This document shows positions 3,765-55,941 of a DNA stretch of 64,000 nucleotides, one piece after another. The notes beneath the pieces are model-generated. The model made no database searches. It was not told the DNA's origin and worked only from the letters and a program-made list of their open reading frames with translations. How positions within the stretch are numbered: position 1 is the stretch's first letter; the number at the start of each line of letters is the position of its first letter. The position numbers and the translations under genes are program-made. The stretch comes from Candidatus Gottesmanbacteria bacterium (lineage in GTDB: Bacteria; Patescibacteriota; Microgenomatia; UBA10105; UBA927): assembly GCA_963701185.1 (NCBI GenBank), contig OY969569.1, forward strand, positions 383,054 to 447,053, in the 5' to 3' direction.

Positions 3765-3780
3765 CAAATAGCCCATAGAC

Positions 3781-3809
3781 TTGACAACTACCCCTATTTA
3801 GGCTATACT
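3781..3809 (+). promoter_or_regulatory. sigma70-like promoter TTGACA-17-TATACT
   Basis: ttgaca at 3781-3786 and tatact at 3804-3809, with a 17-nt spacer. It lies upstream of CDS 3869. Confidence 0.45.
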
Positions 3810-3868
3810 GCCGCCTTAGATCCTAAAGTAAGCTCGTTAAACAGTTTGCTTTAGGATTTTTTGGTGGT

Positions 3869-10500: not shown

Positions 10501-13500
10501 TCGTTGGCCAAAACCTGACACTCGGACTCGACTCTGATGTCACCTGTACAATCACCAACAATGACCAGGCTGCACATCTTATCGTTATTAAACATGTTGA
10601 TAACGGCACGACCGGGGCCACATACACCGCAGCTGATTTCACAATGACAATTAACGACGTGACTGCATCAGGCGGAAATTCATTTGCCGGAAGTGAAAGT
10701 CCGGGTACGAATAAAACGTTAACGACTGTCGGATCATATACCGTAACAGAAAGCGGACCTCCAGGGTATACGAAAACGGCGTCAACCGATTGTTCAGGCA
10801 CAATTGCACTTGGTGAAACAAAAACCTGTACCATTACCAATACGGCAATTGCCCCGCAGCTTAAGCTTGTAAAGACTGTTACCAACGATAACGGCGGAAC
10901 GAAACAGGTATCGGATTTCCCATTGTTCATAGACGGAAATGGGGTAACTAGCGGGGTATTTAATTCTGTAACGGTTGGTTCGCATACTGCAACAGAAACT
11001 TCGGATTCCGGTTATTCCGCATCAGTTTGGGGAACGGATTGTGCATCAAACGGATCTATTACATTAGCTCTCGGAGATTCTAAAACCTGTACGATAACCA
11101 ACAATGACAAGGCCGCCCATTTAATAGTCATCAAACACGTTATTAATGATAACGGCGGGACAAAATCCGCAGCAAATTTTTCAACAACTATTTCCGGTGT
11201 AACAACTGTAACCCCGACTGCGCCAGGTGCAGAATCACCTGGAGTTGATAACATTCTGACAACAGTGGGTTCTTATAGTGTCGATGAAGGCACGCATACC
11301 GGATATGCAAAATCTCTTTCAACTGATTGTACCGGTTCAATTGCTTTGGGCGAGACCAAAACATGTACAATTACCAATGATGATATCCAACCGAAACTTA
11401 CGCTGACGAAAATCGTTAAAAACGACAATGGAGGGAATGCTGTTATTAGTGATTTCCCTCTTTTTGTAAACACCACTCCGGTGACAAGCGGAGTGCAAAA
11501 TGGATTCGATGCGGGAACGTATACTGCCTCTGAAACAAATCTAGGCGGATATACCGCAAGCGCGTGGAGCCCCGATTGTGCACCCAACGGATCAATTACG
11601 CTCGCAGTGGGAGACGTAAAGTCCTGCAGCATCGTGAATGATGATCAACCAGCGCATATCGTGCTGAATAAAGTCGTTAATAAAAATCACGGCGGCACGG
11701 CAGATGTGAATGATTTCGGTATTTCCATTGATGACGGTTCCGTTCTATCCGGATCAACTCATGACGTTACTTCAAATACCTCGCACACACTAAATGAAAC
11801 GGGGTTGACGGGTTACGAATTTGTATCACTGACAGGAGATTCAAAATGTCCAAGCGTATTAGGCGGGGGAGTAACACTCAATGAGGGTGAAACTGTCAAC
11901 TGCACGATAACGAACGAAGATATAGCCCCGACGTTACATCTTCGAAAGACTGTCACAAAGGACAACGGCGGAACTGCTCTTGATACAGCATGGACGCTGA
12001 CTGCAACTGGTACGCTCGGAAGTCCGACGAATTTGTCCGGGTCAACACCTGTGAATAGCGGAGCAGACTTTAAAGCCGATACGTATACTCTGGGTGAAAC
12101 AGGACCTTCAGGATACTCTGCGAGCGGATGGACATGTACCGGTGACGTCAAAAATTCGGGCAATTCAATTACGTTAGGACTCAGTCAATCCGCTACCTGC
12201 ACCATAAACAATGATGACAATGCGCCTTCTCTGACCCTTATCAAACACGTAACGAATGATAACGGGGGAAATGCAGCGACTACCGACTGGACATTAAGTG
12301 CTGATGGGCCCACGTCAATTTCAGGCGCTGGCGGCGTGGTAAGTGGCGCAAGTTTTGAAAAAGGTACATACGCGCTTTCAGAAAGCACCGGACCATCCGG
12401 ATATACGGCGGGAACATGGAGCTGTACAGGCGGAACTTTTGTAAATAATCAAATCACGCTCGGACTTGGCGACCAAGCCACTTGTGAAATAACCAACGAT
12501 GACCAGCCGGCAACTCTTATTGTCATTAAACACGTTGAAAACAATAACATTGGTACTGCTGTTGCAGATGATTTTACTATGAACGTGACAGGAACAAATG
12601 TTTCCGATTCGTCCTTTGCAGGTGCAGAAGATCCCGGCACATCAGTAACGCTCGATGCGGGATCGTATTCGGTGAGTGAAACGGGTATAACAGGCTACTC
12701 TGGCTCTTATTCCAATGACTGCAGCGGGGCGATAGCAAACGGGCAAACGAAGACGTGTACTGTAACCAACACGCGGGATATCGGAACAATTACTGTAAAC
12801 AAGGTACTCGTCCCAGCCAATGATCCGGGCCTTTTCACCCTTAAAATTGATGGCAGTGCTGCCGGAACCGGCACCGATGTCGGGAATGGCGGAACAACTG
12901 GCGCAATTACAGTTGGAAGCGATCTCCATTCCGTAAATGAGGTTGGCGGCACAAACGGAACAGACCTAAGCAATTATTTAACAACTTATTACTGTACCGG
13001 TGGAGAGGGATCTTTGCGCGGTACAGGAACAAATATCTCCGACATTGATGTCGGATCCGGTGATGACATTGTCTGTACGTTCACCAACACCCGAAAAACA
13101 GGAACACTTCTCGTTCATAAAGTCGCCGACACGAATGGCGATGGGCAATACGACAGCACAGATCCGACAAACTTCAAATGGGGAACGGAAAGCGCCGTAC
13201 TGGCAACCACCGATATGGGAACGCCACAGACGCTAATCACCGGAAATTATAACGTGTATGAAAATATTGTCCCGGGCTACCAATTCACTGGCTGGTTCCC
13301 GAATGGATTTATCGATGACAACGAAATCCGGTATAGCTGTGAGCGTTTACCGCAAGGGCCCCAATATACCCAGTTACCGACGGATATCGCGGTAACCACG
13401 GATCAAACGGAACTCACCCTGTGTAATAAATTTATCAATCCGATCCTGACGATTACGAAGGAGAACAACACCGGCGGGGCGGATATATCACCGGGCAGTG

Positions 13501-16730: not shown

Positions 16731-17741
16731 ATGAAACGAGTACTTGTCCTTTTGATAACGTATTTATTTTTAGCACCATCTATTTCCTCTGTATATGCCG
16801 CTGATTCCCTCACACTCTGTGTCAAAGAAAGCGGCGTGGTGTTTGCTATCGGCATCGGATTTCATACGACGGAGTGTAAAAAGAATGACAAATTGGTCAC
16901 TCTTACGTATGGCGGTTCCGGTGGAGCAGGGGCAACGGGCGCAACCGGGAATATAGGTTCTACCGGTGCGACCGGCATGCAAGGTATTGAAGGCTCCGTT
17001 GGCGCTACAGGTTTGCCAGGATCCCCGGGGGAACAGGGTTCAACAGGGGCAAGCGGACTTCCCGGTTCAATCGGTGTCACCGGACAGCAAGGAATTCAGG
17101 GGCTATCGGGAGAATTGGGCCCGACGGGCGCAACCGGTCAAGCCGGAGACATTGGTCCTGTCGGTGCTACCGGTTTATCGGGTATACCGGGGGACAAGGG
17201 TGAAACGGGAGCAAGCGGATTACCCGGTTTGGTCGGAGCAACTGGCGCAAAGGGGGATACAGGGTCAATCGGTCCAACCGGTAATGCCGGAAATATCGGT
17301 CCGCATGGCGCAACGGGCGCAACCGGCGTGGCCGGAGAAATTGGGCCTGTTGGTGCTACAGGATTAAAAGGAGAAGTCGGCTCAACCGGCAGTCAGGGGC
17401 CAGCCGGGGACGCAGGTTCGGTCGGGGCAACCGGTAATCAGGGACCGACGGGAGAAATAGGTCCGGTTGGCGCAACAGGAGCACAGGGCGTCATCGGATT
17501 TGAACTGATTACAAACATAACGGACGTTACCGATACGACATCCAAAACAGTTCCGGCTACGTGTCCCACCGGCAAAAAAGTTATCGGCGGAGGATATGCG
17601 ATCACGAGCGATGGCGCAACATTCCGGACCATCTCTGATCAACCAACATCTGACGATACATGGACAGTTGCGATCACAAGAACGTCGGGGAGCTATCTCT
17701 GGTCACTGAAAGTCATCGCAATCTGTGTAAACGCACTGTAA
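16731..17741 (+). CDS. bacterial collagen-like protein (signal peptide, about 60 GXY triplets, C-terminal globular domain)
   Basis: ATG at 16731 with an aggagg RBS. The GXY run spans GGAGATGATGNIG...GAQGVIG. The upstream in-frame part of ORF 16281..17741 overlaps the previous gene and was discarded. Confidence 0.75.
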   Translation: MKRVLVLLITYLFLAPSISSVYAADSLTLCVKESGVVFAIGIGFHTTECKKNDKLVTLTYGGSGGAGATGATGNIGSTGATGMQGIEGSVGATGLPGSPGEQGSTGASGLPGSIGVTGQQGIQGLSGELGPTGATGQAGDIGPVGATGLSGIPGDKGETGASGLPGLVGATGAKGDTGSIGPTGNAGNIGPHGATGATGVAGEIGPVGATGLKGEVGSTGSQGPAGDAGSVGATGNQGPTGEIGPVGATGAQGVIGFELITNITDVTDTTSKTVPATCPTGKKVIGGGYAITSDGATFRTISDQPTSDDTWTVAITRTSGSYLWSLKVIAICVNAL

Positions 17742-17782: not shown

Positions 17783-18115
17783 ATGATTACTGATGCAGAT
17801 GTCAAGAAATTAAAGGCTGTTTTTGCCACTAAAGACGACCTCGTGGCCATGGAAAAACGCTTTGACCGAAAATTTGCCACCAAAGACGATTTGAAACGCT
17901 TTGCCACCAAAGACGATTTGAAACGCTTTGCCACCAAAGACGATCTCATGTCCATAAAAAGCGATATGGTTTCCATGGAAATACGGCTCAAAAAAGAAAT
18001 TGTCGGAGCTGTCGTCGATTATCTTCAACATAATATCATTCCGATACTTAACGAGCACGACAAACGACTGGACCGGTTGGAAAAACACGTCGGAGGATTT
18101 CCGGCAATCGCTTGA
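17783..18115 (+). CDS. small coiled-coil protein with tandem KRFATKDDL repeats
   Basis: Three 9-aa (27-nt) tandem repeats. No known domain. Confidence 0.45.
   Translation: MITDADVKKLKAVFATKDDLVAMEKRFDRKFATKDDLKRFATKDDLKRFATKDDLMSIKSDMVSMEIRLKKEIVGAVVDYLQHNIIPILNEHDKRLDRLEKHVGGFPAIA
17873..17947 (+). repeat. 27-nt tandem repeat (tttgccaccaaagacgatttgaaacgc) x2.8
   Basis: Read directly. A degenerate fourth copy sits at 17821-17845. Confidence 0.8.
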
Positions 18116-18139
18116 CAGGGGTTTCTTATACTGTAGAAT
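18112..18139 (+). promoter_or_regulatory. sigma70-like promoter TTGACA-16-TAGAAT upstream of thrS, with structured 5' UTR of about 120 nt
   Basis: ttgaca at 18112-18117, tg-n-tagaat at 18132-18139. The UTR has a nested stem (gtgcgct...tccgcc-aacc-ggcgga...agcgcac) covering GGAG just before the ATG at 18268. Confidence 0.45.
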
Positions 18140-18267
18140 ATAGATACTTCTCACTTGCATGAGACGTAACTAACCTCAAAGAGAAGCGCGATCTTCGGCG
18201 AAATGAAGAAAAATTAAGTACCGTTTATTGTGCGCTGGAAACTTCCGCCAACCGGCGGAGCGCACGA

Positions 18268-20028
18268 ATGAACGGTTTTTTGTTGGAAAATATGGACCAA
18301 GAACACCTTAATCATCTTCGACACTCATGCGCACATTTGCTTGCGGCGGCGGTCATGGAGCTGTGGCCCAACACCAAACGCACGATCGGACCGGCAATCG
18401 AAAATGGATTCTATTATGATTTTGATTTCGGTGATGTGAAAATATCCGAAGAAGATTTCCCCAAAATAGAGGCAAAAATGCTGGAACTGGTCAAAACCTG
18501 GAAAGGGTTTGAACGAAGAGAAGTAAGCCGCGCGGAGGCAGTCAAAATATTTCAGGATAACGAATACAAAAAAGAATTGATCGAAGAGTTTAGCAAAGAA
18601 GGCCAAAAGCTCACAGTCTTTACATCGGGCACCTATACGGATCTTTGCCGCGGCGGCCATTGCCCGCACCCAAGCCATGATCTGAAATATTTTGATCTGC
18701 TTTCCGTCGCCGGCGCGTATTGGCGCGGGTCCGAAAAAAATAAGATGCTCACGCGCATTTACGGCACCTGTTTTCCGACACGCACGGGATTGGATGATTA
18801 TCTGAAAGGTATAGAAGAAGCCAAAAAACGCGACCACCGGAAAATCGGCAGAGAATTAGGATTATTCACGATGAATAGCGAAGTCGGACAGGGGATAACC
18901 ATCTGGCTTCCCAACGGCTCAATTATCCGCCGCGAGATAGAAGAGTATATGGTACGTGAGCAAACTAAAATTGGATTCAAACACGTGTATAGCCCGCATA
19001 TCGGTCGCAAGTCCTTGTGGGAAAAAAGCGGGCATTGGGATTTATACCGAGACAAAATGTATTCCCCGATGGATGTAGACGGCGTCGAGTATTTGGTAAA
19101 ACCCATGACCTGTCCCATGCACATTCAGTCATTTGAATTTACACCGAAATCCTACCGCGATCTCCCGTACAGAATTGCAGAAATCGGTTCCGTATACCGG
19201 TATGAACAATCCGGTGAACTCGCCGGGTTACTACGGGTCCGTGCATTCACACAGGACGATGCCCATATTTTTTGTACACCCGAACAGACAGTAGATGAAT
19301 TTCTGTCGGTTTTTTCATTTATCCAAAAACTCTACAAAGTGTTTGGGTTTAACGAATACCGCGTCAGGTTGGGTATTCGGTCTGCAAAGGGAAAATACTT
19401 AGGAAATGATAGTCTGTGGGAAAAAGCGCAGGAAAAAATTATTGAAGCTCTCGATAAATCCGGGGTCGCGTACACAATATCTGAGGGCGATGCGGCATTT
19501 TACGGACCAAAAGCCGATTTTATGATCAAGGATGCACTCGGCCGGGAGTGGCAATGTGGAACGGTGCAGGTTGATTTCATGTTACCGGAACGCTTTGGAT
19601 TAAAATATATCGACAAAAACGGTACAGAGCAGAGGCCGGTTATGATACACCGCGCACCGCTCGGGTCACTGGAGCGGTTTTTAGCAATACTGATCGAACA
19701 GTATGCCGGGGCATTTCCGGCGTGGCTGGCACCCGTGCAGGTCGTCCTTATTCCGATTGCCGAGCGGCATGTTGAAGCGGCCAAAATGATGGCCGGTGAG
19801 CTCCAAGGCCGCGGTATCCGGGTGGAGATAGACGGGAAAAGTGAGCCTATGGGCGCCAAAATCCGAAACGCAACGTTGCAAAAAGTGCCGTTCATGGGTA
19901 TAATAGGGGATAAAGAAGTGACGGAGAAGCGTATTTCCGTCCGGACACGCAAGGGTGAAGATCTCAAAGCGATGAGCCTTGAGAATTTTTTGTCCCTGCT
20001 ACAAGAAGCGATTGAGCATACTGTATAA
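18268..20028 (+). CDS. thrS: threonyl-tRNA synthetase (lacks N-terminal TGS domain)
   Basis: Class II core with RDHRKIGRELGLF, the HxxxH/C editing-domain remnant, and a C-terminal anticodon-binding domain. 586 aa. Confidence 0.9.
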   Translation: MNGFLLENMDQEHLNHLRHSCAHLLAAAVMELWPNTKRTIGPAIENGFYYDFDFGDVKISEEDFPKIEAKMLELVKTWKGFERREVSRAEAVKIFQDNEYKKELIEEFSKEGQKLTVFTSGTYTDLCRGGHCPHPSHDLKYFDLLSVAGAYWRGSEKNKMLTRIYGTCFPTRTGLDDYLKGIEEAKKRDHRKIGRELGLFTMNSEVGQGITIWLPNGSIIRREIEEYMVREQTKIGFKHVYSPHIGRKSLWEKSGHWDLYRDKMYSPMDVDGVEYLVKPMTCPMHIQSFEFTPKSYRDLPYRIAEIGSVYRYEQSGELAGLLRVRAFTQDDAHIFCTPEQTVDEFLSVFSFIQKLYKVFGFNEYRVRLGIRSAKGKYLGNDSLWEKAQEKIIEALDKSGVAYTISEGDAAFYGPKADFMIKDALGREWQCGTVQVDFMLPERFGLKYIDKNGTEQRPVMIHRAPLGSLERFLAILIEQYAGAFPAWLAPVQVVLIPIAERHVEAAKMMAGELQGRGIRVEIDGKSEPMGAKIRNATLQKVPFMGIIGDKEVTEKRISVRTRKGEDLKAMSLENFLSLLQEAIEHTV

Positions 20029-20739: not shown

Positions 20740-21090
20740 ATGAGAGTAAAACGAGGTGTTCACGCAGGAGCAAAACATCATAAAATTCTGACAGCCAACA
20801 AAGGCTACAGGATGACCAGACGCCGCCTTATCCGTGTGGCAACGCAGGCGTACCTGCATGCGGGAGAATATGCCCATTCCGGACGAAAAAACCGCAAGCG
20901 CGATTTCCGGCAGCTCTGGATCACGAGAATCTCCGAAGCAACCAAGCAAAACGGCCTGTCCTACAGCGTATTCATGAGTAAACTGAAGGCCGCCAACATC
21001 GACATGGACCGGAAAATATTGGCAAATCTGGTCACCAATGATCCCGAAATATTCGAAGAAATCGTTGACAAAGTCAAAACGGTAAATTAA
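20740..21090 (+). CDS. rplT: ribosomal protein L20
   Basis: MRVKRGVHAGAKHHKILT... is the canonical L20 N-terminus. Confidence 0.9.
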   Translation: MRVKRGVHAGAKHHKILTANKGYRMTRRRLIRVATQAYLHAGEYAHSGRKNRKRDFRQLWITRISEATKQNGLSYSVFMSKLKAANIDMDRKILANLVTNDPEIFEEIVDKVKTVN

Positions 21091-21101
21091 AATATAAATC
21101 T

Positions 21102-21173
21102 ATGACAGCCCAAAGAATGTCAGTGAGTATGTTTTTTTGCCCCAAGCCGAACGGGGTATCTTTGGGTGCATAA
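21102..21173 (+). CDS. putative 23-codon leader peptide (MTAQRMSVSMFFCPKPNGVSLGA) upstream of pheST
   Basis: Small ORF ending inside a conserved element shared with the aro-operon leader. Contains an FF pair. Paralogous in length and ends to 26912..26983. Confidence 0.4.
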   Translation: MTAQRMSVSMFFCPKPNGVSLGA

Positions 21174-21222
21174 ATAACTAAAAATTTAACCCACGATCCC
21201 CCGCAAGGGGGATTTTTTGTGG
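21166..21222 (+). promoter_or_regulatory. conserved leader element plus intrinsic terminator (candidate Phe attenuator) upstream of pheS
   Basis: gcataaataacTaaaaatttaAcccacg..., then hairpin atccccc-gcaa-gggggat (21196-21212), then a T6 run. About 80% identical to 26975-27037. Confidence 0.5.
21196..21218 (+). terminator. rho-independent terminator (7-bp GC stem, GCAA loop, U6)
   Basis: atccccc gcaa gggggat tttttt, read directly. Confidence 0.7.
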
Positions 21223-21270
21223 AAGTATCTTGCGTGAATACAAGCTAAACCGTACAATGAAAGTGAGTCT

Positions 21271-22314
21271 ATGAGTGATCTTATACCGACACCGAATTTC
21301 ATTGGTATGCTTTTGGAGTGCCAGCAGGATGCGCTTGACGCGATTGCCGACGGTGAAAAATCCGCGGAACGGCTGCGCATAGAGCTCCTTGGCAATAAAA
21401 GTGATCTGTCAAAGTTAACCAAAAACATACGGCTTGTCCCTGCCGCAGACCGGGCCCAGGCCGGAACGGTCGTCAACCAGGTAAAACAGACCATTCTGCA
21501 GGCTCTCGCCGCACGCGGCACGACACAAACCCCCAAAACCACCCTGCCATTTGACCCGACCATGCCGGGGATTGAGCCGCCGGAGGGCCATTTGCACATC
21601 GTAACGCAGGCTATTGAAGAAATTACGCGCATATTTGAACGTATCAGTTTCATCCGCGTCCGGCACCCCGAAGTTGACTGGGACTGGTATCCGTTTGAAT
21701 CATTAAACATGCCCCACTCTCACCCGGCAAGCGACGAATGGGAAACATTTTATATTGAAGGGCACGGAATAGGACCAAAAAAACAGAAAATAGTCCTCAC
21801 GCCGCATACCAGCAACGGCCAGGTACGGGAAATGGAAAAGGGGAAACTTCCGATCCGCATGATCAATATCGCCAAGTGCTACCGCCGGCAGATTGACGTG
21901 TCCCATACGCCGATGTTCCACCAATTTGAGGGATTGTATATCGACCGCAACGTGTCCATTTCACATCTCAAAGGGGTACTGGATTATTTTGCAAAACAAT
22001 TTTTCGGCCCTGAAAGAAAAACGCGCATCCGGCCGTTTCATTTTCAGTTTACAGAACCTTCATTTGAAGTGGATGTTTCCTGCGGTGTGTGTCTCGGAAA
22101 AGGATGCAAACTGTGCAAGGAAGGCTGGCTTGAACTCGGCGGCGCGGGCATGGTGCATCCGAATGTCCTGAAAAACGGGAATGTTCCGGCCGGGTACAAC
22201 GGCTTTGCGTTCGGTTGGGGAGTCGAGCGCTGTTTTATGATGAAATCGGGAACGCAATTGGACGACATTCGACTTTTATATAGCAACGATGTGCGCTTTT
22301 TGGAACAGTTTTAA
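21271..22314 (+). CDS. pheS: phenylalanyl-tRNA synthetase alpha subunit
   Basis: Class II motifs FHQFEGLYID and GWGVERCFMM. N-terminal helical arm. Confidence 0.9.
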   Translation: MSDLIPTPNFIGMLLECQQDALDAIADGEKSAERLRIELLGNKSDLSKLTKNIRLVPAADRAQAGTVVNQVKQTILQALAARGTTQTPKTTLPFDPTMPGIEPPEGHLHIVTQAIEEITRIFERISFIRVRHPEVDWDWYPFESLNMPHSHPASDEWETFYIEGHGIGPKKQKIVLTPHTSNGQVREMEKGKLPIRMINIAKCYRRQIDVSHTPMFHQFEGLYIDRNVSISHLKGVLDYFAKQFFGPERKTRIRPFHFQFTEPSFEVDVSCGVCLGKGCKLCKEGWLELGGAGMVHPNVLKNGNVPAGYNGFAFGWGVERCFMMKSGTQLDDIRLLYSNDVRFLEQF

Positions 22315-22316: not shown

Positions 22317-24284
22317 ATGAACATACTCATACCTGATTCATGGCTCAGAGAATTTCTTAAAACAAAGGCAACTTCTCAACAGATAAAGGAGTATTTGTCC
22401 CTGTGTGGCCCGTCGGTCGAACGGCTTAGAAGACTGTCTTTGAACAAAGACAGTCTTCAAGGCGAAACAGTTTACGACATCGAAATCACAACCAACCGGC
22501 CCGACGCGATGTCTGTTTTTGGTGTCGCGCGCGAGGCGGCGGCGATTTTACCCCGGTTCGGGATTCCGGCAAAATTCGTCAATGACCCCTATGCCCTACA
22601 AGGACTCTCCTTGAAGGACGAGGAGAGTCCTTCTCGGAGCCTTAAACTTTTTATCAAAACCGACCCGAAGCTTAATCCCCGCTGGACATCTATTATTCTT
22701 TCGGATGTCCGCGTCGCGCCTTCGCCCCTCTGGCTCAAACAAAAACTGGAAGCAACCGGCATCCGCAGCATCAACAACGTGATTGACATCACGAATTATC
22801 TGATGCGCGCCTACGGCCAGCCGGCGCACGCGTTTGATTATGACGAAATTAAGGACTCAACAATGATCCTTCGTGAAAGTAAGAAGGGTGAAAAAATCGT
22901 CACCCTGGACGGAAAGACACACACCCTCGCAGGCGGCGACATCGTGATCGAAGACGGCGCCGGCAGACTCATTGACTTGTGCGGCATCATGGGCGCGCAA
23001 AACTCCAGCATTAAACCCGGAACGTCATCTGTTGTTCTTTTTACCCAAACGTACAATCCCGTCAATATCCGCAAAACCTCCATGGCACTGGCGGCGCGAA
23101 GCGAAGCGTCATCGCTTTTTGAAAAAGGACTCGATAGTGAACTGACACTACCTGCTTTAATCCGCGGAATAGAACTGATGGAAAAACTTACCGGCGCACA
23201 CGCTGCCAGTAAAATGTATGACATCTATCCCAAACCGTACAAACCATATTCAGTTACTGTCTCAAAAGAAAAAACGGCGGGCTATATGGGGACAGAACTC
23301 ACTGATACTGAAATAAAAAAAATACTGGTTCCGCTCGGATTCACGCCGTCTCTCACTAAAAAAGAGATTACCGTCACGGTCCCGAGCTACCGCACGGATG
23401 TGACACTGGACGTGGATGTGATTGAAGAAATCGCCCGGATATACGGATATCACAACATACAGACCACATTGCCGGAAGGCGAGCCGCCGATCGTCATACC
23501 TGATCCGCTCCTTGGATGGGAACACGAAATAAAAATACACCTGCGCGATTGGGGATTTACCGAACTCACTACCTACTCCATGATTTCCGAAAAACTCATG
23601 GGGATATTCGGCCTTGATACCAATAAAGCATATAAAATCACCAATCCGCTTTCGGAGGAATGGCTCTACATGCGGCCAACACTCCTCCCAAGCGCGCTTC
23701 TTGCCGTTGAACAGAACCTGCATTTCAGAAAGGATCTGCAATTATTTGAATTAAGTATGACGTATCAATGGCGTGAGCACGATTTGCCCAAAGAAAAACC
23801 GACACTGGTCGTTGCGTGGACCGGAAACAAACATCGCGAGGCCAAAGGAGTAGGAGAAGCTATCTGTTCGATCCTGGGTGAACGCAATTCGGGCTTCGTT
23901 GAAGAAGTTAAACCTGATCTTCTGTCAAAAATGAATATCCATACGCCGGTGACGACATTGACTCTCGATATTGCCGATCTTGTTACCCACGCAACACGGA
24001 ATAAAAAATATGTTCCGATTTCTAAATATCCTCCGATCGTCGAAGATTTATCGTTCATCGTTCCGCAGGGATTCCAGGTCGGTCCGCTTATTGACGTTCT
24101 GTCGCGGGTTCACAAACTTATCGAGTCCATCGTTTTCTTAGACGCCTATGAAAACAAACGGACGTTCCGTGTCACGTACAATGACCCGACAAAAAACCTG
24201 ACCGGCATGGATATCGCACCCATCCGTCAAAAACTCATCGAATACGCCGGAGAAAAATTCGGGGCCTCCGTGGTCACCGCTTAA
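22317..24284 (+). CDS. pheT: phenylalanyl-tRNA synthetase beta subunit (short form lacking N-terminal tRNA-binding domain)
   Basis: B3/4 and B5 domains, then an FDYDEI-containing core. 655 aa. Carries an in-frame REP hairpin at 22429-22458. Confidence 0.85.
   Translation: MNILIPDSWLREFLKTKATSQQIKEYLSLCGPSVERLRRLSLNKDSLQGETVYDIEITTNRPDAMSVFGVAREAAAILPRFGIPAKFVNDPYALQGLSLKDEESPSRSLKLFIKTDPKLNPRWTSIILSDVRVAPSPLWLKQKLEATGIRSINNVIDITNYLMRAYGQPAHAFDYDEIKDSTMILRESKKGEKIVTLDGKTHTLAGGDIVIEDGAGRLIDLCGIMGAQNSSIKPGTSSVVLFTQTYNPVNIRKTSMALAARSEASSLFEKGLDSELTLPALIRGIELMEKLTGAHAASKMYDIYPKPYKPYSVTVSKEKTAGYMGTELTDTEIKKILVPLGFTPSLTKKEITVTVPSYRTDVTLDVDVIEEIARIYGYHNIQTTLPEGEPPIVIPDPLLGWEHEIKIHLRDWGFTELTTYSMISEKLMGIFGLDTNKAYKITNPLSEEWLYMRPTLLPSALLAVEQNLHFRKDLQLFELSMTYQWREHDLPKEKPTLVVAWTGNKHREAKGVGEAICSILGERNSGFVEEVKPDLLSKMNIHTPVTTLTLDIADLVTHATRNKKYVPISKYPPIVEDLSFIVPQGFQVGPLIDVLSRVHKLIESIVFLDAYENKRTFRVTYNDPTKNLTGMDIAPIRQKLIEYAGEKFGASVVTA
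22429..22458. repeat. REP-like hairpin copy 3 (gaagactgtctttgaacaaagacagtcttc), in frame inside pheT
   Basis: 26/30 nt identical to copy 1. It encodes RLSLNKDSLQ in pheT without breaking the frame. Confidence 0.85.
22600..22632. repeat. 12-bp perfect inverted repeat (aaggactctcct ... aggagagtcctt) with 9-nt loop inside pheT
   Basis: Read directly. Shares the caagga/gagagtcct motif seen at 15498 and 55818. Confidence 0.6.
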
Positions 24285-26871: not shown

Positions 26872-26900
26872 TTGCAAAAATTGACAACACGTGATATACT
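26872..26900 (+). promoter_or_regulatory. candidate promoter TTGCAA-17-TATACT upstream of aro leader ORF
   Basis: ttgcaa at 26872-26877, tatact at 26895-26900. An alternative pairing is TTGACA at 26881 with CATACT at 26902. Confidence 0.35.
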
Positions 26901-26911: not shown

Positions 26912-26983
26912 ATGAATAGCCAACGCAACCAAAATTTCTTTTATTATTTTACTCCAGTCCTTGGAGGGGATTGCGTGGCATAA
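26912..26983 (+). CDS. putative 23-codon aromatic-rich leader peptide (MNSQRNQNFFYYFTPVLGGDCVA) upstream of the aro operon
   Basis: FFYYF codon cluster. The ORF stops inside the conserved element. Same length (23 codons) and similar ends to the pheST leader. Confidence 0.5.
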   Translation: MNSQRNQNFFYYFTPVLGGDCVA

Positions 26984-27037
26984 ATAACAAAAATTTATAA
27001 CACCACGGAACCCCGCCAAGGCGGGGTTTTTTTGTGG
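26975..27037 (+). promoter_or_regulatory. conserved leader element plus intrinsic terminator (candidate Phe/Tyr attenuator) upstream of DAHP synthase
   Basis: gcataaataacAaaaatttaTaacaccacgg..., then hairpin ccccgcc-aa-ggcgggg, then a T7 run. The upstream segment ggggattgcgtgg (inside the leader codons) can pair with ccacggaacccc to give an anti-terminator. Confidence 0.5.
27011..27033 (+). terminator. rho-independent terminator (ccccgcc aa ggcgggg + U7)
   Basis: Read directly. Located 20 nt before the ATG of 27053. Confidence 0.7.
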
Positions 27038-27052
27038 TGAAAAAACGTACCT

Positions 27053-28006
27053 ATGACTATTGAACAACGAAATTTCGATCTTGAAATATTTGCCGGACCA
27101 TGTTCTATCAACCGTGAGAATATCCGTGATATTTACGCTATCGCGGACATCCAGGTGAAGTCTCAGCGTGGGGAGCTCCAGCGCGCCATAGCCGGTACGC
27201 GGATCGTGGGCCTTAAATCCCGAACTGCGCTTTCACCGAATCCGGAAGATATGGGCATCGATTACCCGACCATTGAGGAACAGGTTCTCATCGTGGGGCG
27301 GGCAGTATTGGAACAAACACCTCCGAGCATCACCATATCGGCGCAGGTTGTGGCGGATACTGATCTGGCGGTTGCAACAGAAGTGATGATGCCGGAAATA
27401 CAAATACCGCATTATGTCGGAAAAATTCCACCGGGGAAGCTGCTTTTATGGAATCCATCGGTGGATCAATTAGGGTGGCACATCCTCCAGACATCGAGTC
27501 TGGCTGCCAAAAACGGGTGGAGGGTGGGAATCAAAAACGGCAAAACGCTGGGGAGTACACTTACCGATGCGAAAGATGAGACGCGGCAGACGCCGGTAGA
27601 ACTGGAACGTACATGGGCGGGACTTGCGGCATTCGCCAAAGGCATGGACGGAAGACTCGTTTTCATCCACCGCGGGGTAGAAGACCCGCAAAAAGGTGAA
27701 TGGCGAAGCGCTCTGGTTCACGAAGTTGCACGGCGCGTAAAACGCAGTGTTCCTTCCGCGAAGCTCTTTTTTGACCCAAGCCACAGTTGCGGACCGAAGC
27801 TTCGTGATCAAATCGTGCCGGTAACAATTGATGCGATGCGGATGCGGGACGGAAGCGGCTTTCTCTATGACGGAATTTTAATCGAAACCGGTCATTCAAC
27901 GACGGATACAAAACAACATATTACTATTGATGAGTTGCGATGTCTGGTTGAGGAGCTGTCGCGATTTCGGGTGTTGAAAATTCCAACGAAAGGCGGACGG
28001 ATATGA
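27053..28006 (+). CDS. 3-deoxy-7-phosphoheptulonate (DAHP) synthase, type I-beta (KDO8PS-like fold)
   Basis: FAGPCSIN (xAGPCSxE motif) and KLFFDPSHSCG (DPSHxxG motif). First gene of an aromatic biosynthesis operon. Confidence 0.7.
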   Translation: MTIEQRNFDLEIFAGPCSINRENIRDIYAIADIQVKSQRGELQRAIAGTRIVGLKSRTALSPNPEDMGIDYPTIEEQVLIVGRAVLEQTPPSITISAQVVADTDLAVATEVMMPEIQIPHYVGKIPPGKLLLWNPSVDQLGWHILQTSSLAAKNGWRVGIKNGKTLGSTLTDAKDETRQTPVELERTWAGLAAFAKGMDGRLVFIHRGVEDPQKGEWRSALVHEVARRVKRSVPSAKLFFDPSHSCGPKLRDQIVPVTIDAMRMRDGSGFLYDGILIETGHSTTDTKQHITIDELRCLVEELSRFRVLKIPTKGGRI

Positions 28007-28863
28007 ACCCTCCGATAGCCACTCCTGAGTCTATCGCTTCCATCGGGCATATCGGCTCGTACAGTTTTGCCGCCGCCCAATGGGCCGCGCCAAAAGCCGT
28101 GGTGAAATTCTTCCCTGCTTTTGCGGATGTGTGCGCTGCCGTTACACGCGGCGATTGCACGCTGGGAGTGCTTCCGATAGAAAATTCACTTACCGGCAGC
28201 ATCCATGAAAACTATGATCTGTTAAAACAACAGAAACTCCATATTGTAGGAGAAGTATGTTTAAACATAACACATGCATTGCTGGTTACACCTGGTGGTT
28301 GCGCCAACGACGACGAGAGGTTGAGGGGTGTCCGAACGATTTTTTCGCACCCGCAAGCGTTATTACAATGCGGCGTGTTTTTAAAAAAACACCCGCACCT
28401 CCAGACTATCGCCTTAGCCGATACTGCAACTGCGGCGGCACGAATCGCACGTTTGAGAAAATCCTCCGAAGCGGCCATTGCCGGTAAATCGACAGGGGAA
28501 CTCCTCGGACTTCGGGCACTGAAAATGAATGTTGCAGATCACCCATGCAATATAACGCGTTTTGTCGTCATTGCCAAACAGAAAAGAATAGATAAAGAAG
28601 CTGATAAAGCCTCTGTCATTCTGCAGCTTCCGCACGTACCCGGAAGTTTATCGCGGGTACTCCGGTGTTTTGCCGAACGAAAGTTAAACCTAACCAAAAT
28701 AGAATCCCGCCCGATCATCGGTACTCCCTGGGAGTATACATTCTACGTGGATGTCGAAATTGGGCGGAACATCAGAAATTTTATGCAGTCACTAGAGGAC
28801 ATACGCCTGGTAGCGCACAAAATACTCATATTAGGCCTGTATAAGAAAGGAGAAACGATATGA
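28003..28863 (+). CDS. pheA: prephenate dehydratase with C-terminal ACT domain
   Basis: LPIENSLTGSI, the TKIESRP (ESRP) motif, and an ACT regulatory domain. Confidence 0.85.
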   Translation: MNPPIATPESIASIGHIGSYSFAAAQWAAPKAVVKFFPAFADVCAAVTRGDCTLGVLPIENSLTGSIHENYDLLKQQKLHIVGEVCLNITHALLVTPGGCANDDERLRGVRTIFSHPQALLQCGVFLKKHPHLQTIALADTATAAARIARLRKSSEAAIAGKSTGELLGLRALKMNVADHPCNITRFVVIAKQKRIDKEADKASVILQLPHVPGSLSRVLRCFAERKLNLTKIESRPIIGTPWEYTFYVDVEIGRNIRNFMQSLEDIRLVAHKILILGLYKKGETI

Positions 28864-29141
28864 ACAGTATACCAAGTAAGTTATTACGTTTACGCCGGCA
28901 AATAGACGATGCGGATCACCATATATTGCATCTGTTGGCGAAACGCCAAAACCTATCCCGTGCAGTCGTACGGCAAAAAAAACTTCACGGGCTGGCTATT
29001 ACGCACAGAGTCCGTGAACGGCAAATCATGGAAAACAGACAAACAGTCGGCCGATCTTTGGGGCTTGATTCAATGCTGGTCCGGCGATTATTCGCCCTGA
29101 TTATACAAGAGTCAAAACGAATACAAAAAGAACATATATGA
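28860..29141 (+). CDS. chorismate mutase (AroQ class, monofunctional)
   Basis: 93-aa helical protein. LRRQIDDADHHILHLLAKR is typical of CM_2. Confidence 0.7.
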   Translation: MNSIPSKLLRLRRQIDDADHHILHLLAKRQNLSRAVVRQKKLHGLAITHRVRERQIMENRQTVGRSLGLDSMLVRRLFALIIQESKRIQKEHI

Positions 29142-30004
29142 ACATGCGTATACGCACCATAGGAATTATCGGATTGGGTCTTATCGGGACCTCTCTCGGC
29201 ATGGCTCTCAAAAGAACTGACAGGACGATGAAAATCATCGGTTTGACCAAATCGGAAAAAAGCGGAAGAACGGCAATACAAATGGGCGCGATTGACCGTT
29301 TGGCTCACACTGTTACGGAACTACTCAACGGCACAGATATGCTCATCCTGGCAACGCCTATACGCGTCACGATGACGCTTTTGCCGCATATCGGAAGGCT
29401 CGCCCAAAAACCTATTCTTATAACGGATACCGGCAGTACAAAAGTTGAAATTTGCGCAATCGCAAAAAAACTTCCCGCACACGTGACATTTATCGGTGGA
29501 CATCCGATGGCAGGGAAAGAAACAAGCGGTCCGGAACATGCGGATGCCGGCCTATTCGTTGACCGGCCATGGATCCTCACATCCGACAATACAGAAGACA
29601 ATACCCTCACGGGTATTGAATCTATCGTCAGCGCGGCGGGTGCCGTACCCATCCGGATGACGGCGGCTGATCACGACCGGCTGATTGCGTCGATATCACA
29701 TCTTCCGCTGGTTATTTCTTCCCTTCTTATGGAAACGGCGGCGGGGCACCCATCCTGGCCCGCCCTACGACGTTTAGCGGGAAACGGTTTTCGCGATACG
29801 ACCCGGCTTGCCGCAGGAAACCCGGCTATGCATACGGATATCCTCCGAACAAATAAGAAAAATATTTTATCTGCCATACTGCAGTTTGAACATGCACTGG
29901 AAACGCTCAAAACCGATATCGCTTCAGACCGCTGGCTGGCAATAAATGAAAGACTTCAGGCGGTGCAACAGGCGCGTGTTTCATGGGGAAGGAGTCAGCT
30001 ATGA
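29138..30004 (+). CDS. tyrA: prephenate/arogenate dehydrogenase
   Basis: Rossmann motif IGIIGLGLIGTSLG. PDH C-terminal domain. Confidence 0.8.
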   Translation: MNMRIRTIGIIGLGLIGTSLGMALKRTDRTMKIIGLTKSEKSGRTAIQMGAIDRLAHTVTELLNGTDMLILATPIRVTMTLLPHIGRLAQKPILITDTGSTKVEICAIAKKLPAHVTFIGGHPMAGKETSGPEHADAGLFVDRPWILTSDNTEDNTLTGIESIVSAAGAVPIRMTAADHDRLIASISHLPLVISSLLMETAAGHPSWPALRRLAGNGFRDTTRLAAGNPAMHTDILRTNKKNILSAILQFEHALETLKTDIASDRWLAINERLQAVQQARVSWGRSQL

Positions 30005-31113
30005 AGATGAATTCATTTTGGCATCATGCGGCAGCTCACCCGCCCGCTACATACATTCCAAATCAAGGCGTCATTGTCCGTCATAATTTTGCTGCCCTGG
30101 AAAACGATTTTGGTAGCAGTCCGGTCATCGACAAAGCGATTCGGACATTACGGAATGCGCAACTGAATCACTACCCGGATCGCAATGCCGTCACTCTGAA
30201 AACAAAAATTGCGTCATGGCTGGATCTCACGCCCGACATGGTGGAGCTGGGCAACGGCAGCGATGAACTCATCTCGCTTATTGCTCAGATTGCCGTTGAA
30301 CCCGGAAAATCCGTCATTGTTCAGACGCCGACATTCTTTCGGATCATTGAGGCAGTGAACAAAATGAAGGGGGCCGTCGTCCCGGTGGCCGCTCAAAAAG
30401 ATAGCGGCTTTGCTCTTGACGAACAATTTGTCGACGGTCTTATGACGGCCGCCAAAAAAAACCGCGCCGCCCTTATATGGCTGTGTACGCCCAATAACCC
30501 GACCGGAGCAGTTATGAATTCGGCCTCTATCGACCGGATAGCTGGCAGTACAAAGGCGTTTGTTGTTGTCGATGAGGCATACCAGGAACTTTGGGATCCG
30601 GAAAATAAAAAATCGGCGGTGAGGCTCATACCAAAACATGACAACCTTATCGTCACGAAAACGTTCTCCAAGGCGTTCGGTTTGGCAGCAATCCGCGTCG
30701 GCGTGATGCTGGGAAATCCGAAGCTTATATCAGCGGTGGACGCTTGGAGGCTGAATTTTCCTTTATCGTCCATATCACTGCGGATTGCAGAGGCGGCGCT
30801 GTCAGATACTGATCATCTGATCCGAATACGCAATAAGGTTTCGCGTGAACGGAATATGCTTTTTCGCCATATAGCAAAGCTGCCGATGCTGGAACTGGGA
30901 GCCGAATCAAAAACAAACGTATTTCTTTTGCGTCACAAAACAGACGACCTGCATGCATTGCTTTTAAAACAAGGCATGATGACCGCCGATTTTAACCGAA
31001 TGAACGGCCTGGAACATATGCGTTTTGTACGCATTACGGTGAAACGCCGGAAAGAAAATCTTATGTTAATGAAAGCGCTTACGGCATCGTGCGGAAAGGA
31101 AACATCTTTATGA
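30001..31113 (+). CDS. hisC: histidinol-phosphate/aromatic aminotransferase (HisC family, class II)
   Basis: PLP lysine motif KTFSKAFGLAAIRVG. Its ATGA overlaps tyrA. Context suggests an aromatic aminotransferase role. Confidence 0.75.
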   Translation: MKMNSFWHHAAAHPPATYIPNQGVIVRHNFAALENDFGSSPVIDKAIRTLRNAQLNHYPDRNAVTLKTKIASWLDLTPDMVELGNGSDELISLIAQIAVEPGKSVIVQTPTFFRIIEAVNKMKGAVVPVAAQKDSGFALDEQFVDGLMTAAKKNRAALIWLCTPNNPTGAVMNSASIDRIAGSTKAFVVVDEAYQELWDPENKKSAVRLIPKHDNLIVTKTFSKAFGLAAIRVGVMLGNPKLISAVDAWRLNFPLSSISLRIAEAALSDTDHLIRIRNKVSRERNMLFRHIAKLPMLELGAESKTNVFLLRHKTDDLHALLLKQGMMTADFNRMNGLEHMRFVRITVKRRKENLMLMKALTASCGKETSL

Positions 31114-31733
31114 AAGCTGAATTCATTATTTTCCGACATGGCGAAACCGACTGGAATCGGCAACACCGGTCTATGGGAACAACAGACATTCCTTTAAATG
31201 CGACAGGGAAACAACAGGCAGAGAGACTGGCAGTGCGGCTGGCGCAAGAACACATTAGCGCATGTTACACGTCACCGCTTGCCCGCGCGAAAGAAACCAT
31301 GTGTTTAGTAGCGAGGTACCATCATCTCCCCGTTTGGATACTTGAGGATCTCAGGGAAATGGACCTTGGCCAGTTTGAGGGGAAATTGAAAGCAGAGCGA
31401 ACACTATTATTCCCCGGGTTTGACCCCGGCAACGATGAACATAGGGAGCTCTTACACATGGACACATTTTCCCTTTGGATACCGAGGTTAAAAAATGAAA
31501 TCGTAGCCGGATTATTACAAAGACATGATGGGCAGACAATCGCCATTTCGACGCATGATCAAAAAATGCGTGCACTGCTCATCGCTCTCGGTATGCCGGA
31601 GGAAACCAAGCGGACAGTTTTAAAAAACAGTGCGGTGACGAAAGTTTCTCTGGAAAACGACGCGATGACGGTTATGTATCACAATGATACTTCTCACTTG
31701 GAGAATATAAACATTGAGAAACAAACACTATGA
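31110..31733 (+). CDS. histidine phosphatase (phosphoglycerate mutase family) protein
   Basis: FIIFRHGETDWN is the RHG catalytic motif. Its ATGA overlaps hisC. Confidence 0.7.
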   Translation: MKAEFIIFRHGETDWNRQHRSMGTTDIPLNATGKQQAERLAVRLAQEHISACYTSPLARAKETMCLVARYHHLPVWILEDLREMDLGQFEGKLKAERTLLFPGFDPGNDEHRELLHMDTFSLWIPRLKNEIVAGLLQRHDGQTIAISTHDQKMRALLIALGMPEETKRTVLKNSAVTKVSLENDAMTVMYHNDTSHLENINIEKQTL

Positions 31734-33520
31734 ACATTATTACCTTACAACCATTACCCAAGCCTGTCCGGACTACCGTCTCCGTGCCGGGTTCCAAAAG
31801 CATGACGAACCGTGCACTTGTGATCGCGGCTCTTACGCACGGCACCGTGGTTATTCACCATCCGCTCGTTTCCGATGACACACATGCCATGACATCATGT
31901 TTGTCTGCACTTGGAATTCCAGTCGAAAAAAAGAAAGACAAATGGATTGTGAGCGGAGGGTTGAATCAAGTTACATCGCTAACAAGGACTCTGCCTGCGC
32001 GGCTTTCGGGAACAACCATTCGTTTTTTGACAGCACTCGCCTGTATCGTACCAGGGGTTACCACCCTTTCGGGTGAACCGGGTCTCAACGCGCGGCCAAT
32101 TAGGGAACTGGTTTCGGCATTGCAAAAACGTGGTGCCGGCATCGAGTATCTGCGAAAAACCGGGTTTCCGCCGATTCGCGTCCGGCAGTCACAAATAAAA
32201 TCCGGGGTTATTACTATTTCAGGAACGACAAGCAGTCAGTTTATTTCAGCACTCCTGATGATACTTCCGATGCTTGAGCGATCAACGGTTTCCGTGAGGG
32301 GAAAAACGGTTTCCCGTTCATACATAGATATGACGATTGCACTCATGGCTGCGTGCGGCGTAGCTGTTTGCGAAACCAAACCCAATCATTTTGAAATATT
32401 GCACGGATGCTATACATGCAGGGATATAGAAATAGAAAGCGATGTTTCCAGCGCGTGTTATGTTGCGGCAATCGCAGCACTCACGCAGTCGACGATAACC
32501 ATACGGGGGATGCGTGCCGGCTCAGTCCAGCCGGATATGCAGTTTCTTTCAATTCTTTCTAAAATGGGAAGCCGTGTGTTATGGAAAAGCGATGCGATGA
32601 CCATTCAGGGTAAGGGTGTACGTCCGTTGTCCGTCGACATGAGCGCCTGCCCGGACCAGATACAAACACTTGCGGTGCTGGCGGCTTTTGCCCAGGGGAA
32701 CACCATCATCGAAGGCATTGGAACTTTGCGTGTCAAAGAAACAAACCGCGTTCGTGCATTGCAGACGGAATTAGCGCGGATGGGGATACGAACATCGGCC
32801 ACGAAAAACGTGCTAACGATTTTTGGCGGCCGGCCGCAGCCGGCACGTATACGTACGCACGGCGACCATCGGATGGCCATGGCCTTCGCGGTTGCCGGTG
32901 CAAAAATATCGGGAATGCAGATAGAAAATCCGGACGTCGTCAATAAAACATTTCCGGAGTTCTGGATGTGTATGCGCGATATCGGCATAACGATGGAAAA
33001 ACCGTCAAACATCGTCCTTATCGGATTTATGGGTTCCGGCAAAAGCAGTGTCGCTCCACGTCTTTCTCGGGCGCTCGGTTGGAAAGTCGTTGATATGGAT
33101 GCGCTCGTGCTGTTACGATCAAAACGGGCTTCAATTCAGGAAATTTTTGCTAAAGACGGGGAAAAAGCCTTCCGCCGTCTTGAAGAAACCGTTGCACAAT
33201 CACTGGTGTTAAAAAGTCATCAGGTTATTGCCGCGGGAGGCGGAGTTGTTATGAACGAAAAAACTTTGATGCATTTACAAAATAATGCGACTATCATTTT
33301 TCTAAAAACGTCATTGCCGGTGATAAAAGCACGCTTACGTATTGCAATGGATCGCCCGCTGTGGAACGATAAGCGGAAAGCACGCGACTTATTTATCACT
33401 CGCGCTCCGCTCTATCGTAAAAGCGCAGATATAACAATCACTACCGACAACAAATCCCTATCGGCCATAACGGCAGAAATTATTTTAGAAACAATTTTTC
33501 GTACGATAGAAAGGAAATAA
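31730..33520 (+). CDS. aroA: bifunctional EPSP synthase / shikimate kinase fusion
   Basis: N-terminal [17 protein letters not shown] (EPSPS) through about aa 425. C-terminal P-loop [11 protein letters not shown]...VVDMD (AroK). Confidence 0.85.
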
Positions 33521-33522
33521 CT

Positions 33523-34608: not shown

Positions 34609-34639
34609 TGGAATAAAAATATGCTATAGTGGAGGAAAT

Positions 34640-35892: not shown

Positions 35893-35973
35893 ATGCTTTG
35901 GAAAATCATTATTGTCGTGGCATCGCTGGCGCTTGTTGCCAGCTCCTTTCTTCCGCTTCTTTCACTCCGATAA
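35893..35973 (+). CDS. possible 26-aa hydrophobic micro-peptide (MLWKIIIVVASLALVASSFLPLLSLR)
   Basis: Short ORF directly 5' of palindrome copy A. Weak support. Confidence 0.2.
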   Translation: MLWKIIIVVASLALVASSFLPLLSLR

Positions 35974-35984
35974 AATGATAAACG

Positions 35985-36012
35985 TGTTTTAATGTTTTAA
36001 AACATTAAAACA
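35985..36012. repeat. 28-bp perfect palindrome copy A (tgttttaatgttttaaaacattaaaaca)
   Basis: Read directly. Intergenic between tyrS and recG. Confidence 0.9.
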
Positions 36013-36053
36013 GAGAAATTAAACCTTGCAGACATTACTGATATAATCACCGT

Positions 36054-55838: not shown

Positions 55839-55841
55839 TCC

Positions 55842-55869
55842 TGTTTTAATGTTTTAAAACATTAAAACA
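55842..55869. repeat. 28-bp perfect palindrome copy B
   Basis: tgttttaatgttttaaaacattaaaaca read directly. Preceded by tcctcgtagtcc. Confidence 0.9.
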
Positions 55870-55941
55870 AAGTTCACCAATCCACCCGGAGGGTGTATTG
55901 TCTAATTGTGTTACACTAAAGTATAGGAGGTACGTAGTACT

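Follow-up and report, generated by a model that had tools for sequence, protein, structure and literature searches.

A predicted leader-peptide attenuator of pheST and its relatives in Gottesmanbacteria and other Microgenomates

Introduction

In Escherichia coli, the pheM leader of 14 residues lies between rplT and pheS in the gene order thrS-infC-rpmI-rplT-leader-pheS-pheT. The stretch of 64,000 nucleotides analysed here (hereafter the window; assembly GCA_963701185.1 of Candidatus Gottesmanbacteria bacterium, contig OY969569.1, positions 383,054 to 447,053 of the forward strand; coordinates below count from its first letter) carries in the same place a short open reading frame (ORF) followed by an intrinsic terminator, and a second copy of this element before an operon of aromatic amino acid (aro) genes. 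We consider with good confidence that the pheST element is a functional, ribosome-mediated leader-peptide transcription attenuator of the classical type and, as the comparison of sequences indicates, one member of an attenuator family in Gottesmanbacteria and other Microgenomates. Like E. coli pheM-pheST, it is located between rplT and pheS on the same strand within a matching gene order and combines a short ORF containing Phe codons with alternative hairpins and an intrinsic terminator, and some leaders of relatives also have 14 residues, as does MKHSVLFFGFFATS of locus L001. Unlike E. coli pheM-pheST, the window leader has 23 codons with only two for Phe, its ORF apparently starts right at or close to the transcript 5′ end and lacks a Shine-Dalgarno sequence, an extra 5′ helix (P0) and a promoter-like site between terminator and pheS are present, and the phylum, the candidate phyla radiation (CPR)/Patescibacteria, is unrelated. 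Similarity to E. coli was not detected by blastn against 5,426 genomes, which returned only chance matches of 26 nt to trbC (E = 8).

Classical attenuation of pheST in gamma-proteobacteria (cited in PMC1262725) is accompanied by descriptions of classical attenuators before trpS and leuS in Streptomyces and before amino-acid operons in Actinobacteria (PMC1262725). The latter resemble the window element in that leader-peptide attenuation acts on aminoacyl-tRNA synthetase genes outside the Proteobacteria, but they concern other amino acids, another phylum and another sequence family. In mycobacteria, leaderless short ORFs encoding polycysteine are reported to be Cys-responsive attenuators (bioRxiv 10.1101/834739); these ORFs share with the window element the position of a regulatory ORF at a leaderless 5′ end and the sensing of an amino acid by a codon run, whereas the window element has an intrinsic terminator and an antiterminator and would sense Phe/Tyr. 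The T-box, the usual regulator of aminoacyl-tRNA synthetase genes in Firmicutes, likewise lets tRNA charging set the choice between terminator and antiterminator before synthetase and amino-acid genes; unlike the T-box, the element considered here has no tRNA-binding RNA and the translating ribosome would be the sensor. The T-box covariance model gave no match at gathering score in the window and 13 related loci, nor does it appear at E<=10 for either window copy.

Among the families of Rfam, RF01859 (Phe_leader of enterobacterial pheL-pheA) shows the best resemblance, below threshold, to both window copies and to a canonical member of the family, locus L041. Alignment to this model extends over its whole length and places the terminator and the U-rich and A-rich strands correspondingly, but the pheS copy (19.2 bits), the aro copy (27.9 bits) and L041 (31.1 bits) stay below the gathering score of 55, so that these elements are not members, and the window copies would act on a synthetase operon and on an aro operon of several genes, not on pheA alone. 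No family of Rfam 15 reached its gathering score in the window or in the 13 related loci, and explanations by a T-box, a riboswitch or an L20 leader are unsupported in Rfam. A paper on leader peptides or attenuation in Patescibacteria, CPR or Microgenomates was not found in a literature search with limited coverage of subscription journals. The mechanism is of a known kind, while the family is new with respect to its phylum, the lack of an Rfam model, the re-coding for several amino acids and the probably leaderless leader ORFs.

Results

The pheST leader and its RNA

In the window, thrS (18268-20028), infC, rpmI and rplT (20740-21090) are followed by pheS (21271-22314) and pheT (22317-24284), the putative regulated genes, which lie on the forward strand as do all parts of the element. 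The Pfam matches, for pheS and pheT together tRNA-synt_2d, B3_4, B5 and FDX-ACB, agree with the flanking genes named in an earlier reading of this DNA from the sequence only. PheS shares 86% identity with proteins of Candidatus Gottesmanbacteria metagenome-assembled genomes (Microgenomates, CPR/Patescibacteria). The gap of 180 nt between rplT and pheS contains the leader ORF MTAQRMSVSMFFCPKPNGVSLGA (21102-21173), and both this ORF and a second one of equally 23 codons before the aro operon (26912-26983) had been recognized by the sequence-only reading. The proposed regulatory codons UUU UUU (Phe11-Phe12, 21132-21137) are directly followed by region 1 (UGCCCC, 21138-21143), which pairs with GGGGUA (21153-21158) within region 2 (CGGGGUAUCUUUGGGU, 21152-21167); region 2, situated towards the end of the ORF, provides the antiterminator with its 5′ arm. 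The last sense codon GCA, the stop codon UAA (21171-21173) and an A-rich spacer together make up the antiterminator loop (21168-21188), the stretch best conserved between the two window copies. The antiterminator 3′ arm is region 3 (ACCCACGAUCCCCCG, 21189-21203), which shares nucleotides with the left arm of the intrinsic terminator (21195-21222). The latter, also correctly anticipated, consists of the stem 21195-21202/21207-21214 with the loop GCAA and U6 at 21213-21218; its hairpin (21195-21214) has 8 bp and -14.2 kcal/mol, the antiterminator hairpin has -16.0 kcal/mol (z -2.6), GUGG (21219-22) is able to pair with CCAC (21191-94), and the ATG of pheS (21271) follows 52 nt past the U-run.

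A promoter-like site with 11/12 consensus matches (TTGACA 21065-21070, 17-nt spacer, TAAAAT 21088-21093), the candidate promoter of the leader, overlaps the rplT stop with its TAAAAT hexamer, which ends 8 nt 5′ of the leader ATG, a distance implying a leaderless or near-leaderless mRNA. Of the 44 leader ORFs of the family, 30 have a TAnnnT hexamer whose end lies 5-11 nt 5′ of the ATG, as compared to 2-11/44 in bins further upstream and 14 in the adjacent bin of 0-4 nt. Together with TACAAT boxes near ordinary genes, this distribution makes it probable that leader ORFs are translated from leaderless or nearly leaderless RNAs. Such TACAAT boxes are found 6-12 nt 5′ of an ATG at window positions 5890, 16088, 21253, 26863 (minus strand), 43530 (minus strand), 55212 and others, often with TTGnnn 17-18 nt further upstream, which suggests that mRNAs without or with a very short leader are widespread in this genome. 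The box at 21253 is part of a pheS-proximal promoter-like site (TTGCGT, 17-nt spacer, TACAAT; 21230-21258) that ends 12 nt 5′ of the pheS ATG. Though this assignment was read from the letters and the site scores below the threshold of a generic promoter scan, TTGnnn-N17-TACAAT or TACAAT alone is conserved 5′ of pheS in most relatives, and pheS very likely possesses a constitutive proximal promoter.

Codon runs match the downstream genes

Relatives were sampled as 80 related loci or genomes fetched via pheS, which amount to 1.39 Mb with the window included. Many of these loci display a short ORF with a Phe run, a GC hairpin and a U-run 5′ of pheS or of a PheS fusion gene. Homologous leader ORFs are MTIQRMSAYFFFTSPGGVSLGA of L004, MASRTFFAFFFFNSQQRVSLGA of L041 and MTIKKTFVFFFFASQSGEPLGV; with L004, the window ORF shares the MTxQR start, the frame and the ..G.SLGA-stop end, and its start, frame and SLGA-stop end recur in L041 and others. 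The family consensus reads ATG ACA xCC CAA AGA .. (TTY)n ACC TCG C.... GCG GGG TTC TTT GGG TGC ATAA in its 5′ part, followed in the 3′ part by an A-rich spacer and ACCCAAGGATCCCGC GAAA GCGGGATTTTTTGTGG. To count elements, a covariance model (R1) comprising regions 1-4 only, with the antiterminator as structure, was built from homologues of other genomes; as its start lies 3′ of the codon run, the selection of elements is blind to the ORF. Across the window and the 80 loci, R1 identifies 35 elements at E<1e-4, and in 34 of the 35 an ORF with an ATG start terminates within the element, with aromatic codons forming a run right before region 1. The reading frame, a lack of conservation of which the sequence-only reading had named as speaking against its proposal, is consequently retained across the family.

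The genes that follow the copies in the 1.39 Mb are pheS or the fusion gene, small genes inserted between leader and pheS, or aro genes and tyrS, and the identity of the codon run changes with the gene downstream. Three to six Phe codons occur in the relatives' leaders, as compared to two in the pheS copy of the window, F/W/Y runs precede DAHP-synthase-like and other aro genes, Tyr runs (..YVYTYY.., ..LYGYY..) precede tyrS and Thr runs (..STTTTTTQ..) precede thrS. This correspondence is the signature of leader-peptide attenuation and cannot be explained by an untranslated RNA.

Competing helices and fixed spacing

In the family consensus, region 1 is CCUCGC right after the Phe codons, region 2 is GCGGGGUUCUUUGGGU towards the 3′ end of the ORF, region 3 is ACCCAAGGAUCCCGC, which includes the left arm of the terminator, and region 4 is its right arm. 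Two partners compete for region 2, namely region 1 and, over 15 positions, region 3; the latter has in turn the choice between regions 2 and 4. When the segment that begins 10 nt past the last aromatic codon and extends to where the terminator left arm ends was folded for each sequence separately, a hairpin sequestering the left arm appeared in 23/23 leaders, with a mean z of -3.5 versus dinucleotide shuffles that is independent of any alignment. In the 35-sequence alignment, fitted to just this 2:3 structure, the 15 pairs of the antiterminator are 86.2% paired and 13 of them show double changes, a result reached by 0/500 shuffles, and pairing drops to 34-57% once the partner is slid by 1-3 columns. 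The alignment was not fitted to the other two helices, for which the 1:2 helix is 80.4% paired with compensatory changes at four pairs, the terminator helix is 90.5% paired across the family and both jointly are 85.8% paired with seven double-change pairs, as compared to 40-55% in slid controls. The helices 1:2, 2:3 and 3:4 are mutually exclusive and covary, as in a classical attenuator. RNAalifold, applied to a MAFFT alignment of the antiterminator segments, recovered a consensus of 4 bp only, as indels in the internal loops misalign the arms, and was replaced by per-sequence folding and alignment to the covariance model.

The spacing between codon run and helices is equally constrained. In 33/33 elements the gap from the last aromatic codon to region 1 is 1-4 nt (median 1) and region 2 starts 12-17 nt (median 14) from the first nucleotide of that codon, with distances of 17 nt in the pheS copy and 16 nt in the aro copy of the window. 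The distance to region 2 roughly matches how far a ribosome footprint extends in the 3′ direction, so that upon stalling on the run the ribosome would cover region 1 while region 2 stays accessible. The stop codon is found either within the loop of helix 1:2 or shortly after region 2, and a ribosome finishing the ORF would hence cover region 2. In the window, region 1 has changed together with region 2, with UGCCCC/GGGGUA replacing the consensus CCUCGC/GCGGGG.

The element of about 55 nt recognized previously is composed of the ORF end, the A-rich antiterminator loop, the antiterminator 3′ arm and the terminator, and the peptide likenesses between the two leaders are by-products of RNA strands. 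The Gly-rich end of the peptide results from the G-rich region 2, and the 'QR' derives from CCCAAAGA (codons 3-5, 21109-21116), which pairs with UCUUUGGG (21159-21166) in the SLG codons as helix P0 in the minimum-free-energy (MFE) fold and nearly matches the 5′ half of region 3 in sequence. As P0 occurs in some members of the family but not in others, with one compensatory change in L008 (CUCAAA/UUUGAG), it is not taken as defining, and its role is putative. The A content of the spacer is 0.51 in Phe and 0.59 in Aro leaders versus 0.35 in Tyr and 0.31 in Thr leaders. A possibility that agrees with this composition is that the A-rich spacer pairs with the U-rich codons for Phe and Tyr, an arrangement also seen in the Phe_leader consensus of Rfam; the spacer:codon duplexes, however, are weak, with +0.4 and -2.3 kcal/mol in the window, and own combinations are barely better than foreign ones.

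The second copy precedes an aromatic amino acid operon

The second copy, also on the forward strand, begins with a promoter-like site (TTGCAA, 17-nt spacer, TATACT with an upstream TG; 26872-26900) that ends 11 nt before the ATG of the leader ORF MNSQRNQNFFYYFTPVLGGDCVA (26912-26983), whose FFYYF codons occupy 26936-26950. Its RNA switch (26952-27039) consists of region 1 CUCCA (26952-56), region 2 UGGAGGGGAUUGCGUGG (26962-78), region 3 CCACGGAACCCCGCC (27003-17) and the terminator (27007-27030, then U7), with 10 bp and -17.0 kcal/mol for the terminator hairpin and -17.3 kcal/mol (z -3.3) for the antiterminator hairpin; the 'QR' codons are GCCAACGCA here and have the distal half of region 2 as a possible partner. 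The copy is located 18 nt upstream of the aro operon, which starts with an ATG at 27053 and encodes according to Pfam a weakly matching DAHP-synthase-like protein, prephenate dehydratase, prephenate dehydrogenase, an aminotransferase, a His_Phos_1 protein, an EPSP synthase-shikimate kinase fusion, chorismate synthase and TyrRS. The FFYYF run fits this operon, as it contains pheA, tyrA and tyrS and no trp genes. Homologues of this leader carry ..FFWFYFTP.. (L023), ..YFWFYFTP.. (L068) and ..WFYFYFNP.. (L076).

In a blastn comparison of the window with itself, 21162-21222 matches 26971-27037 over 67 columns with 80.6% identity (E 7e-8), in line with the roughly 80% noted before, and the next-best match has an E of 0.21. 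The only two sites that R1 finds in the window are 21140-21223, with 53.8 bits (E 2e-16), and 26952-27038, with 25 bits (E 2e-5). Over the 3′ element, the window copies are 86% alike versus 61-78% for the matching pairs in five other genomes, which suggests, for this single case, recent gene conversion or duplication.

The surroundings of the second copy vary. At 5.7 kb 3′ of pheS, past a divergent PBP1A gene, relatives (L018, L030, L024 and L005, at ~15,700) have a Tyr-run leader, a small ORF and tyrS; the counterpart in the window (27053-35827) is the F/Y leader with the eight-gene aromatic operon ending in tyrS. The DAHP-synthase-like gene is found in only L068 and L073 among the 80 related loci. 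From this distribution, the aro genes appear to have been inserted between leader and tyrS, or lost elsewhere.

Related modules and other features

In many Microgenomates, PheS is N-terminally fused to an AlaX-like domain (PF01411, PF07973), with the Phe leader preceding the fusion gene; fusion ORFs of ~600 aa occur in L008, L010, L013, L016-L020, L023, L024, L031, L034 and L040 and also in P0060, P0066, P0075 and others. The rplT-pheS gap of relatives can contain one to four small genes of 64-200 aa (L125, L004, L005, L011, L013, L016, L030, L042, L165), of which ten tested had no Pfam match; most have a strong Shine-Dalgarno sequence GAAAGGAGGTGAAAA few bases 5′ of the start, and often each has its own Phe leader/terminator module. 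In L125 (metagenome contig Ga0315268_10001152, minus strand 1960-690) there are three tandem modules, two with decayed Phe runs. These arrangements look like proliferating cassettes of attenuator and small gene; small-gene cassettes with a Shine-Dalgarno sequence are absent from the window.

Upstream of thrS, L074 (Levybacteria, 1792-4067) has three successive leader/terminator modules with an Ile-rich (MRNFYNCIIVIITS), a Leu-rich (MSLNFIARNLLLTLG) and an F/W/Y ORF (MVLKAFWFYFTSLTGR), which are followed by genes of unknown function. In the window, the region upstream of thrS (18112-18296) includes a promoter-like site (TTGACA-16-TAGAAT, 18112-18139) and, immediately 5′ of the thrS start, a long hairpin (~18220-18275; MFE -48.9 kcal/mol, z -4.2) with U6 directly 3′, while its only ORFs have four codons (MKKN, MRRN) as compared to the Thr-run leader ORFs of relatives. 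This region may represent a different or degenerate regulator.

Other repeats of the window are a palindromic motif TGTTTTAATGTTTTAAAACATTAAAACA present four times (55818-55871, 56551-56604, 35961-36014 and 63828-63881) and unrelated to the attenuator, collagen-like GGN-rich coding repeats (7660-7870 and 16920-17440) and a long array of ~290-nt coding repeats within a very large ORF (9240-12770).

Discussion

The anatomy of the ORF, the conservation of its frame, the match of run and gene, the covariation of three helices and the fixed spacing were observed directly, and from these we infer translation of the ORF, ribosome stalling, promoter activity and the regulatory output. Transcription would enter from the infC-rpmI-rplT operon and/or from the promoter overlapping the rplT stop, in the latter case with the short ORF starting almost at the 5′ end of the RNA. 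With ample Phe-tRNA(Phe), the ribosome would reach the UAA and cover region 2 (21152-21167), the 3:4 terminator (21195-21214 with U6) would form and RNA polymerase would stop at ~21218. When charged tRNA(Phe) is scarce, the ribosome would stall on UUU UUU (21132-21137) and cover region 1, leaving region 2 to pair with region 3 (21189-21203), with the terminator left arm sequestered and read-through into pheST as a result. Without translation, the 1:2 helix and P0 would form, and the terminator as well. The copy at 26912-27039 would follow the same logic through Phe and Tyr codons, with control over the common aromatic pathway together with pheA, tyrA and tyrS. The proposal of the sequence-only reading that both modules, each a leader with a terminator, share a Phe-sensing mechanism is thus supported by the open frame, the run-gene match, the helices and the spacing.

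Several observations weigh against a functional attenuator at pheST. Phe codons number just two in the window pheS leader, which showed no other rare-codon feature, the closest relatives of the window as judged by PheS (88-90% identity) have no leader but only the terminator and TACAAT, and Phe runs have decayed to Ser codons in the close relative L011 and in 2/3 of the L125 modules, all of which indicates that loss and decay are frequent. Due to the conserved TTGCGT-N17-TACAAT between terminator and pheS, expression of pheS need not rely on read-through, and pheS has no clear Shine-Dalgarno sequence for translation of a read-through transcript. In addition, the paired percentages are inflated by the fitting of the alignment to the model structure, and the host organism is uncultured.

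The strongest alternative is consequently a vestigial attenuator that by now serves only as terminator of infC-rpmI-rplT, with pheST expressed from its own proximal promoter TTGCGT-N17-TACAAT. The reduced number of Phe codons (two versus 3-6 in homologues), the nearest relatives that retain terminator and TACAAT alone, the decayed runs of L011 and two L125 modules and the conserved promoter-like motif 5′ of pheS are what one would see in such a case; on the other hand, the ORF has retained the start, frame and stop of the family, regions 1, 2 and 3 are intact with region 1 co-changed with region 2, and the spacing of region 2 (17 nt) is inside the family range, although a dead element should gather indels as did the relatives that lost the leader. 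Moreover, the E. coli trp leader works with two tandem regulatory codons, so that two can be enough. We consider the vestige unlikely, if clearly the rival to be taken most seriously. The concern of the sequence-only reading about the two Phe codons was justified to the extent that, with 3-6 codons in relatives, the window pheS copy is a weakened version; the promoter-like motif between terminator and pheS had escaped that reading. In view of the promoter-like site between terminator and pheS, the attenuator probably adds read-through upon Phe starvation to a constitutive expression of pheST.

That the ORF is incidental to an untranslated cis-regulatory RNA, be it a riboswitch, a T-box-like RNA or a protein-binding leader, is highly improbable. 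Such an RNA would agree with the strong conservation of RNA structure and with the coincidence of the conserved peptide parts (QR, SLGA) with helix strands, but the module comprises merely ~120 nt, neither T-box nor riboswitch models match at gathering score (window and 13 related loci), the frame is open in 34/35 elements, the run identity switches with the downstream gene (Phe, F/W/Y, Tyr, Thr) and the distance from run to region 2 is fixed at the size of a ribosome footprint. The conserved cis-RNA considered earlier as an alternative corresponds to antiterminator and terminator of the same device.

A generic repeated terminator (REP-like or mobile) unrelated to Phe, as might be suspected from the likeness of the window copies (80-86%, exceeding corresponding pairs elsewhere) and from the modules reiterated 5′ of small genes of unknown function in relatives, can practically be dismissed, as there are two copies only in 64 kb, nearly all copies in the 1.39 Mb lie on the coding strand in the rplT-pheS gap or before aro/tyrS with an aromatic-run ORF, and a metagenome-wide scan for the loop GCATAAMTARCNAAAAATTT gave among 81 loci only one, L125, with real elements, again between rplT and pheS (the 80 others, without elements, being apparently chance matches of an AT-rich pattern). 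The check for copies upstream of unrelated genes, named by the sequence-only reading as a possible refutation, thus left its proposal standing.

Hardly anything is known about gene regulation in CPR/Patescibacteria, organisms that cannot be grown alone. An attenuator family in which the codon run predicts the gene provides a testable read-out of amino-acid sensing, namely of tRNA charging via the ribosome, and the attenuators are indirect evidence that transcription-translation coupling and leaderless initiation, even on regulatory ORFs, occur in CPR cells. With the aromatic operon of a CPR bacterium under putative Phe/Tyr control, it can be argued that the pathway is really used. The covariance model is an annotation tool that Rfam lacks. 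The mechanism itself is textbook and holds no new principle; the value lies in the phylogenetic reach and in the family. Going further, we lean, by a narrow margin, towards the view that this undescribed, diversified family of leaderless attenuators is the main sensor of amino-acid supply in Microgenomates, re-coded for Phe, Phe/Tyr/Trp, Tyr and Thr to control pheS, an aromatic operon, tyrS and thrS, and also proliferating as cassettes before the small genes with strong Shine-Dalgarno sequences in the rplT-pheS gap. If so, transcription and translation would be tightly coupled in these minimal, probably symbiotic cells, and a set of small proteins would be induced by Phe starvation.

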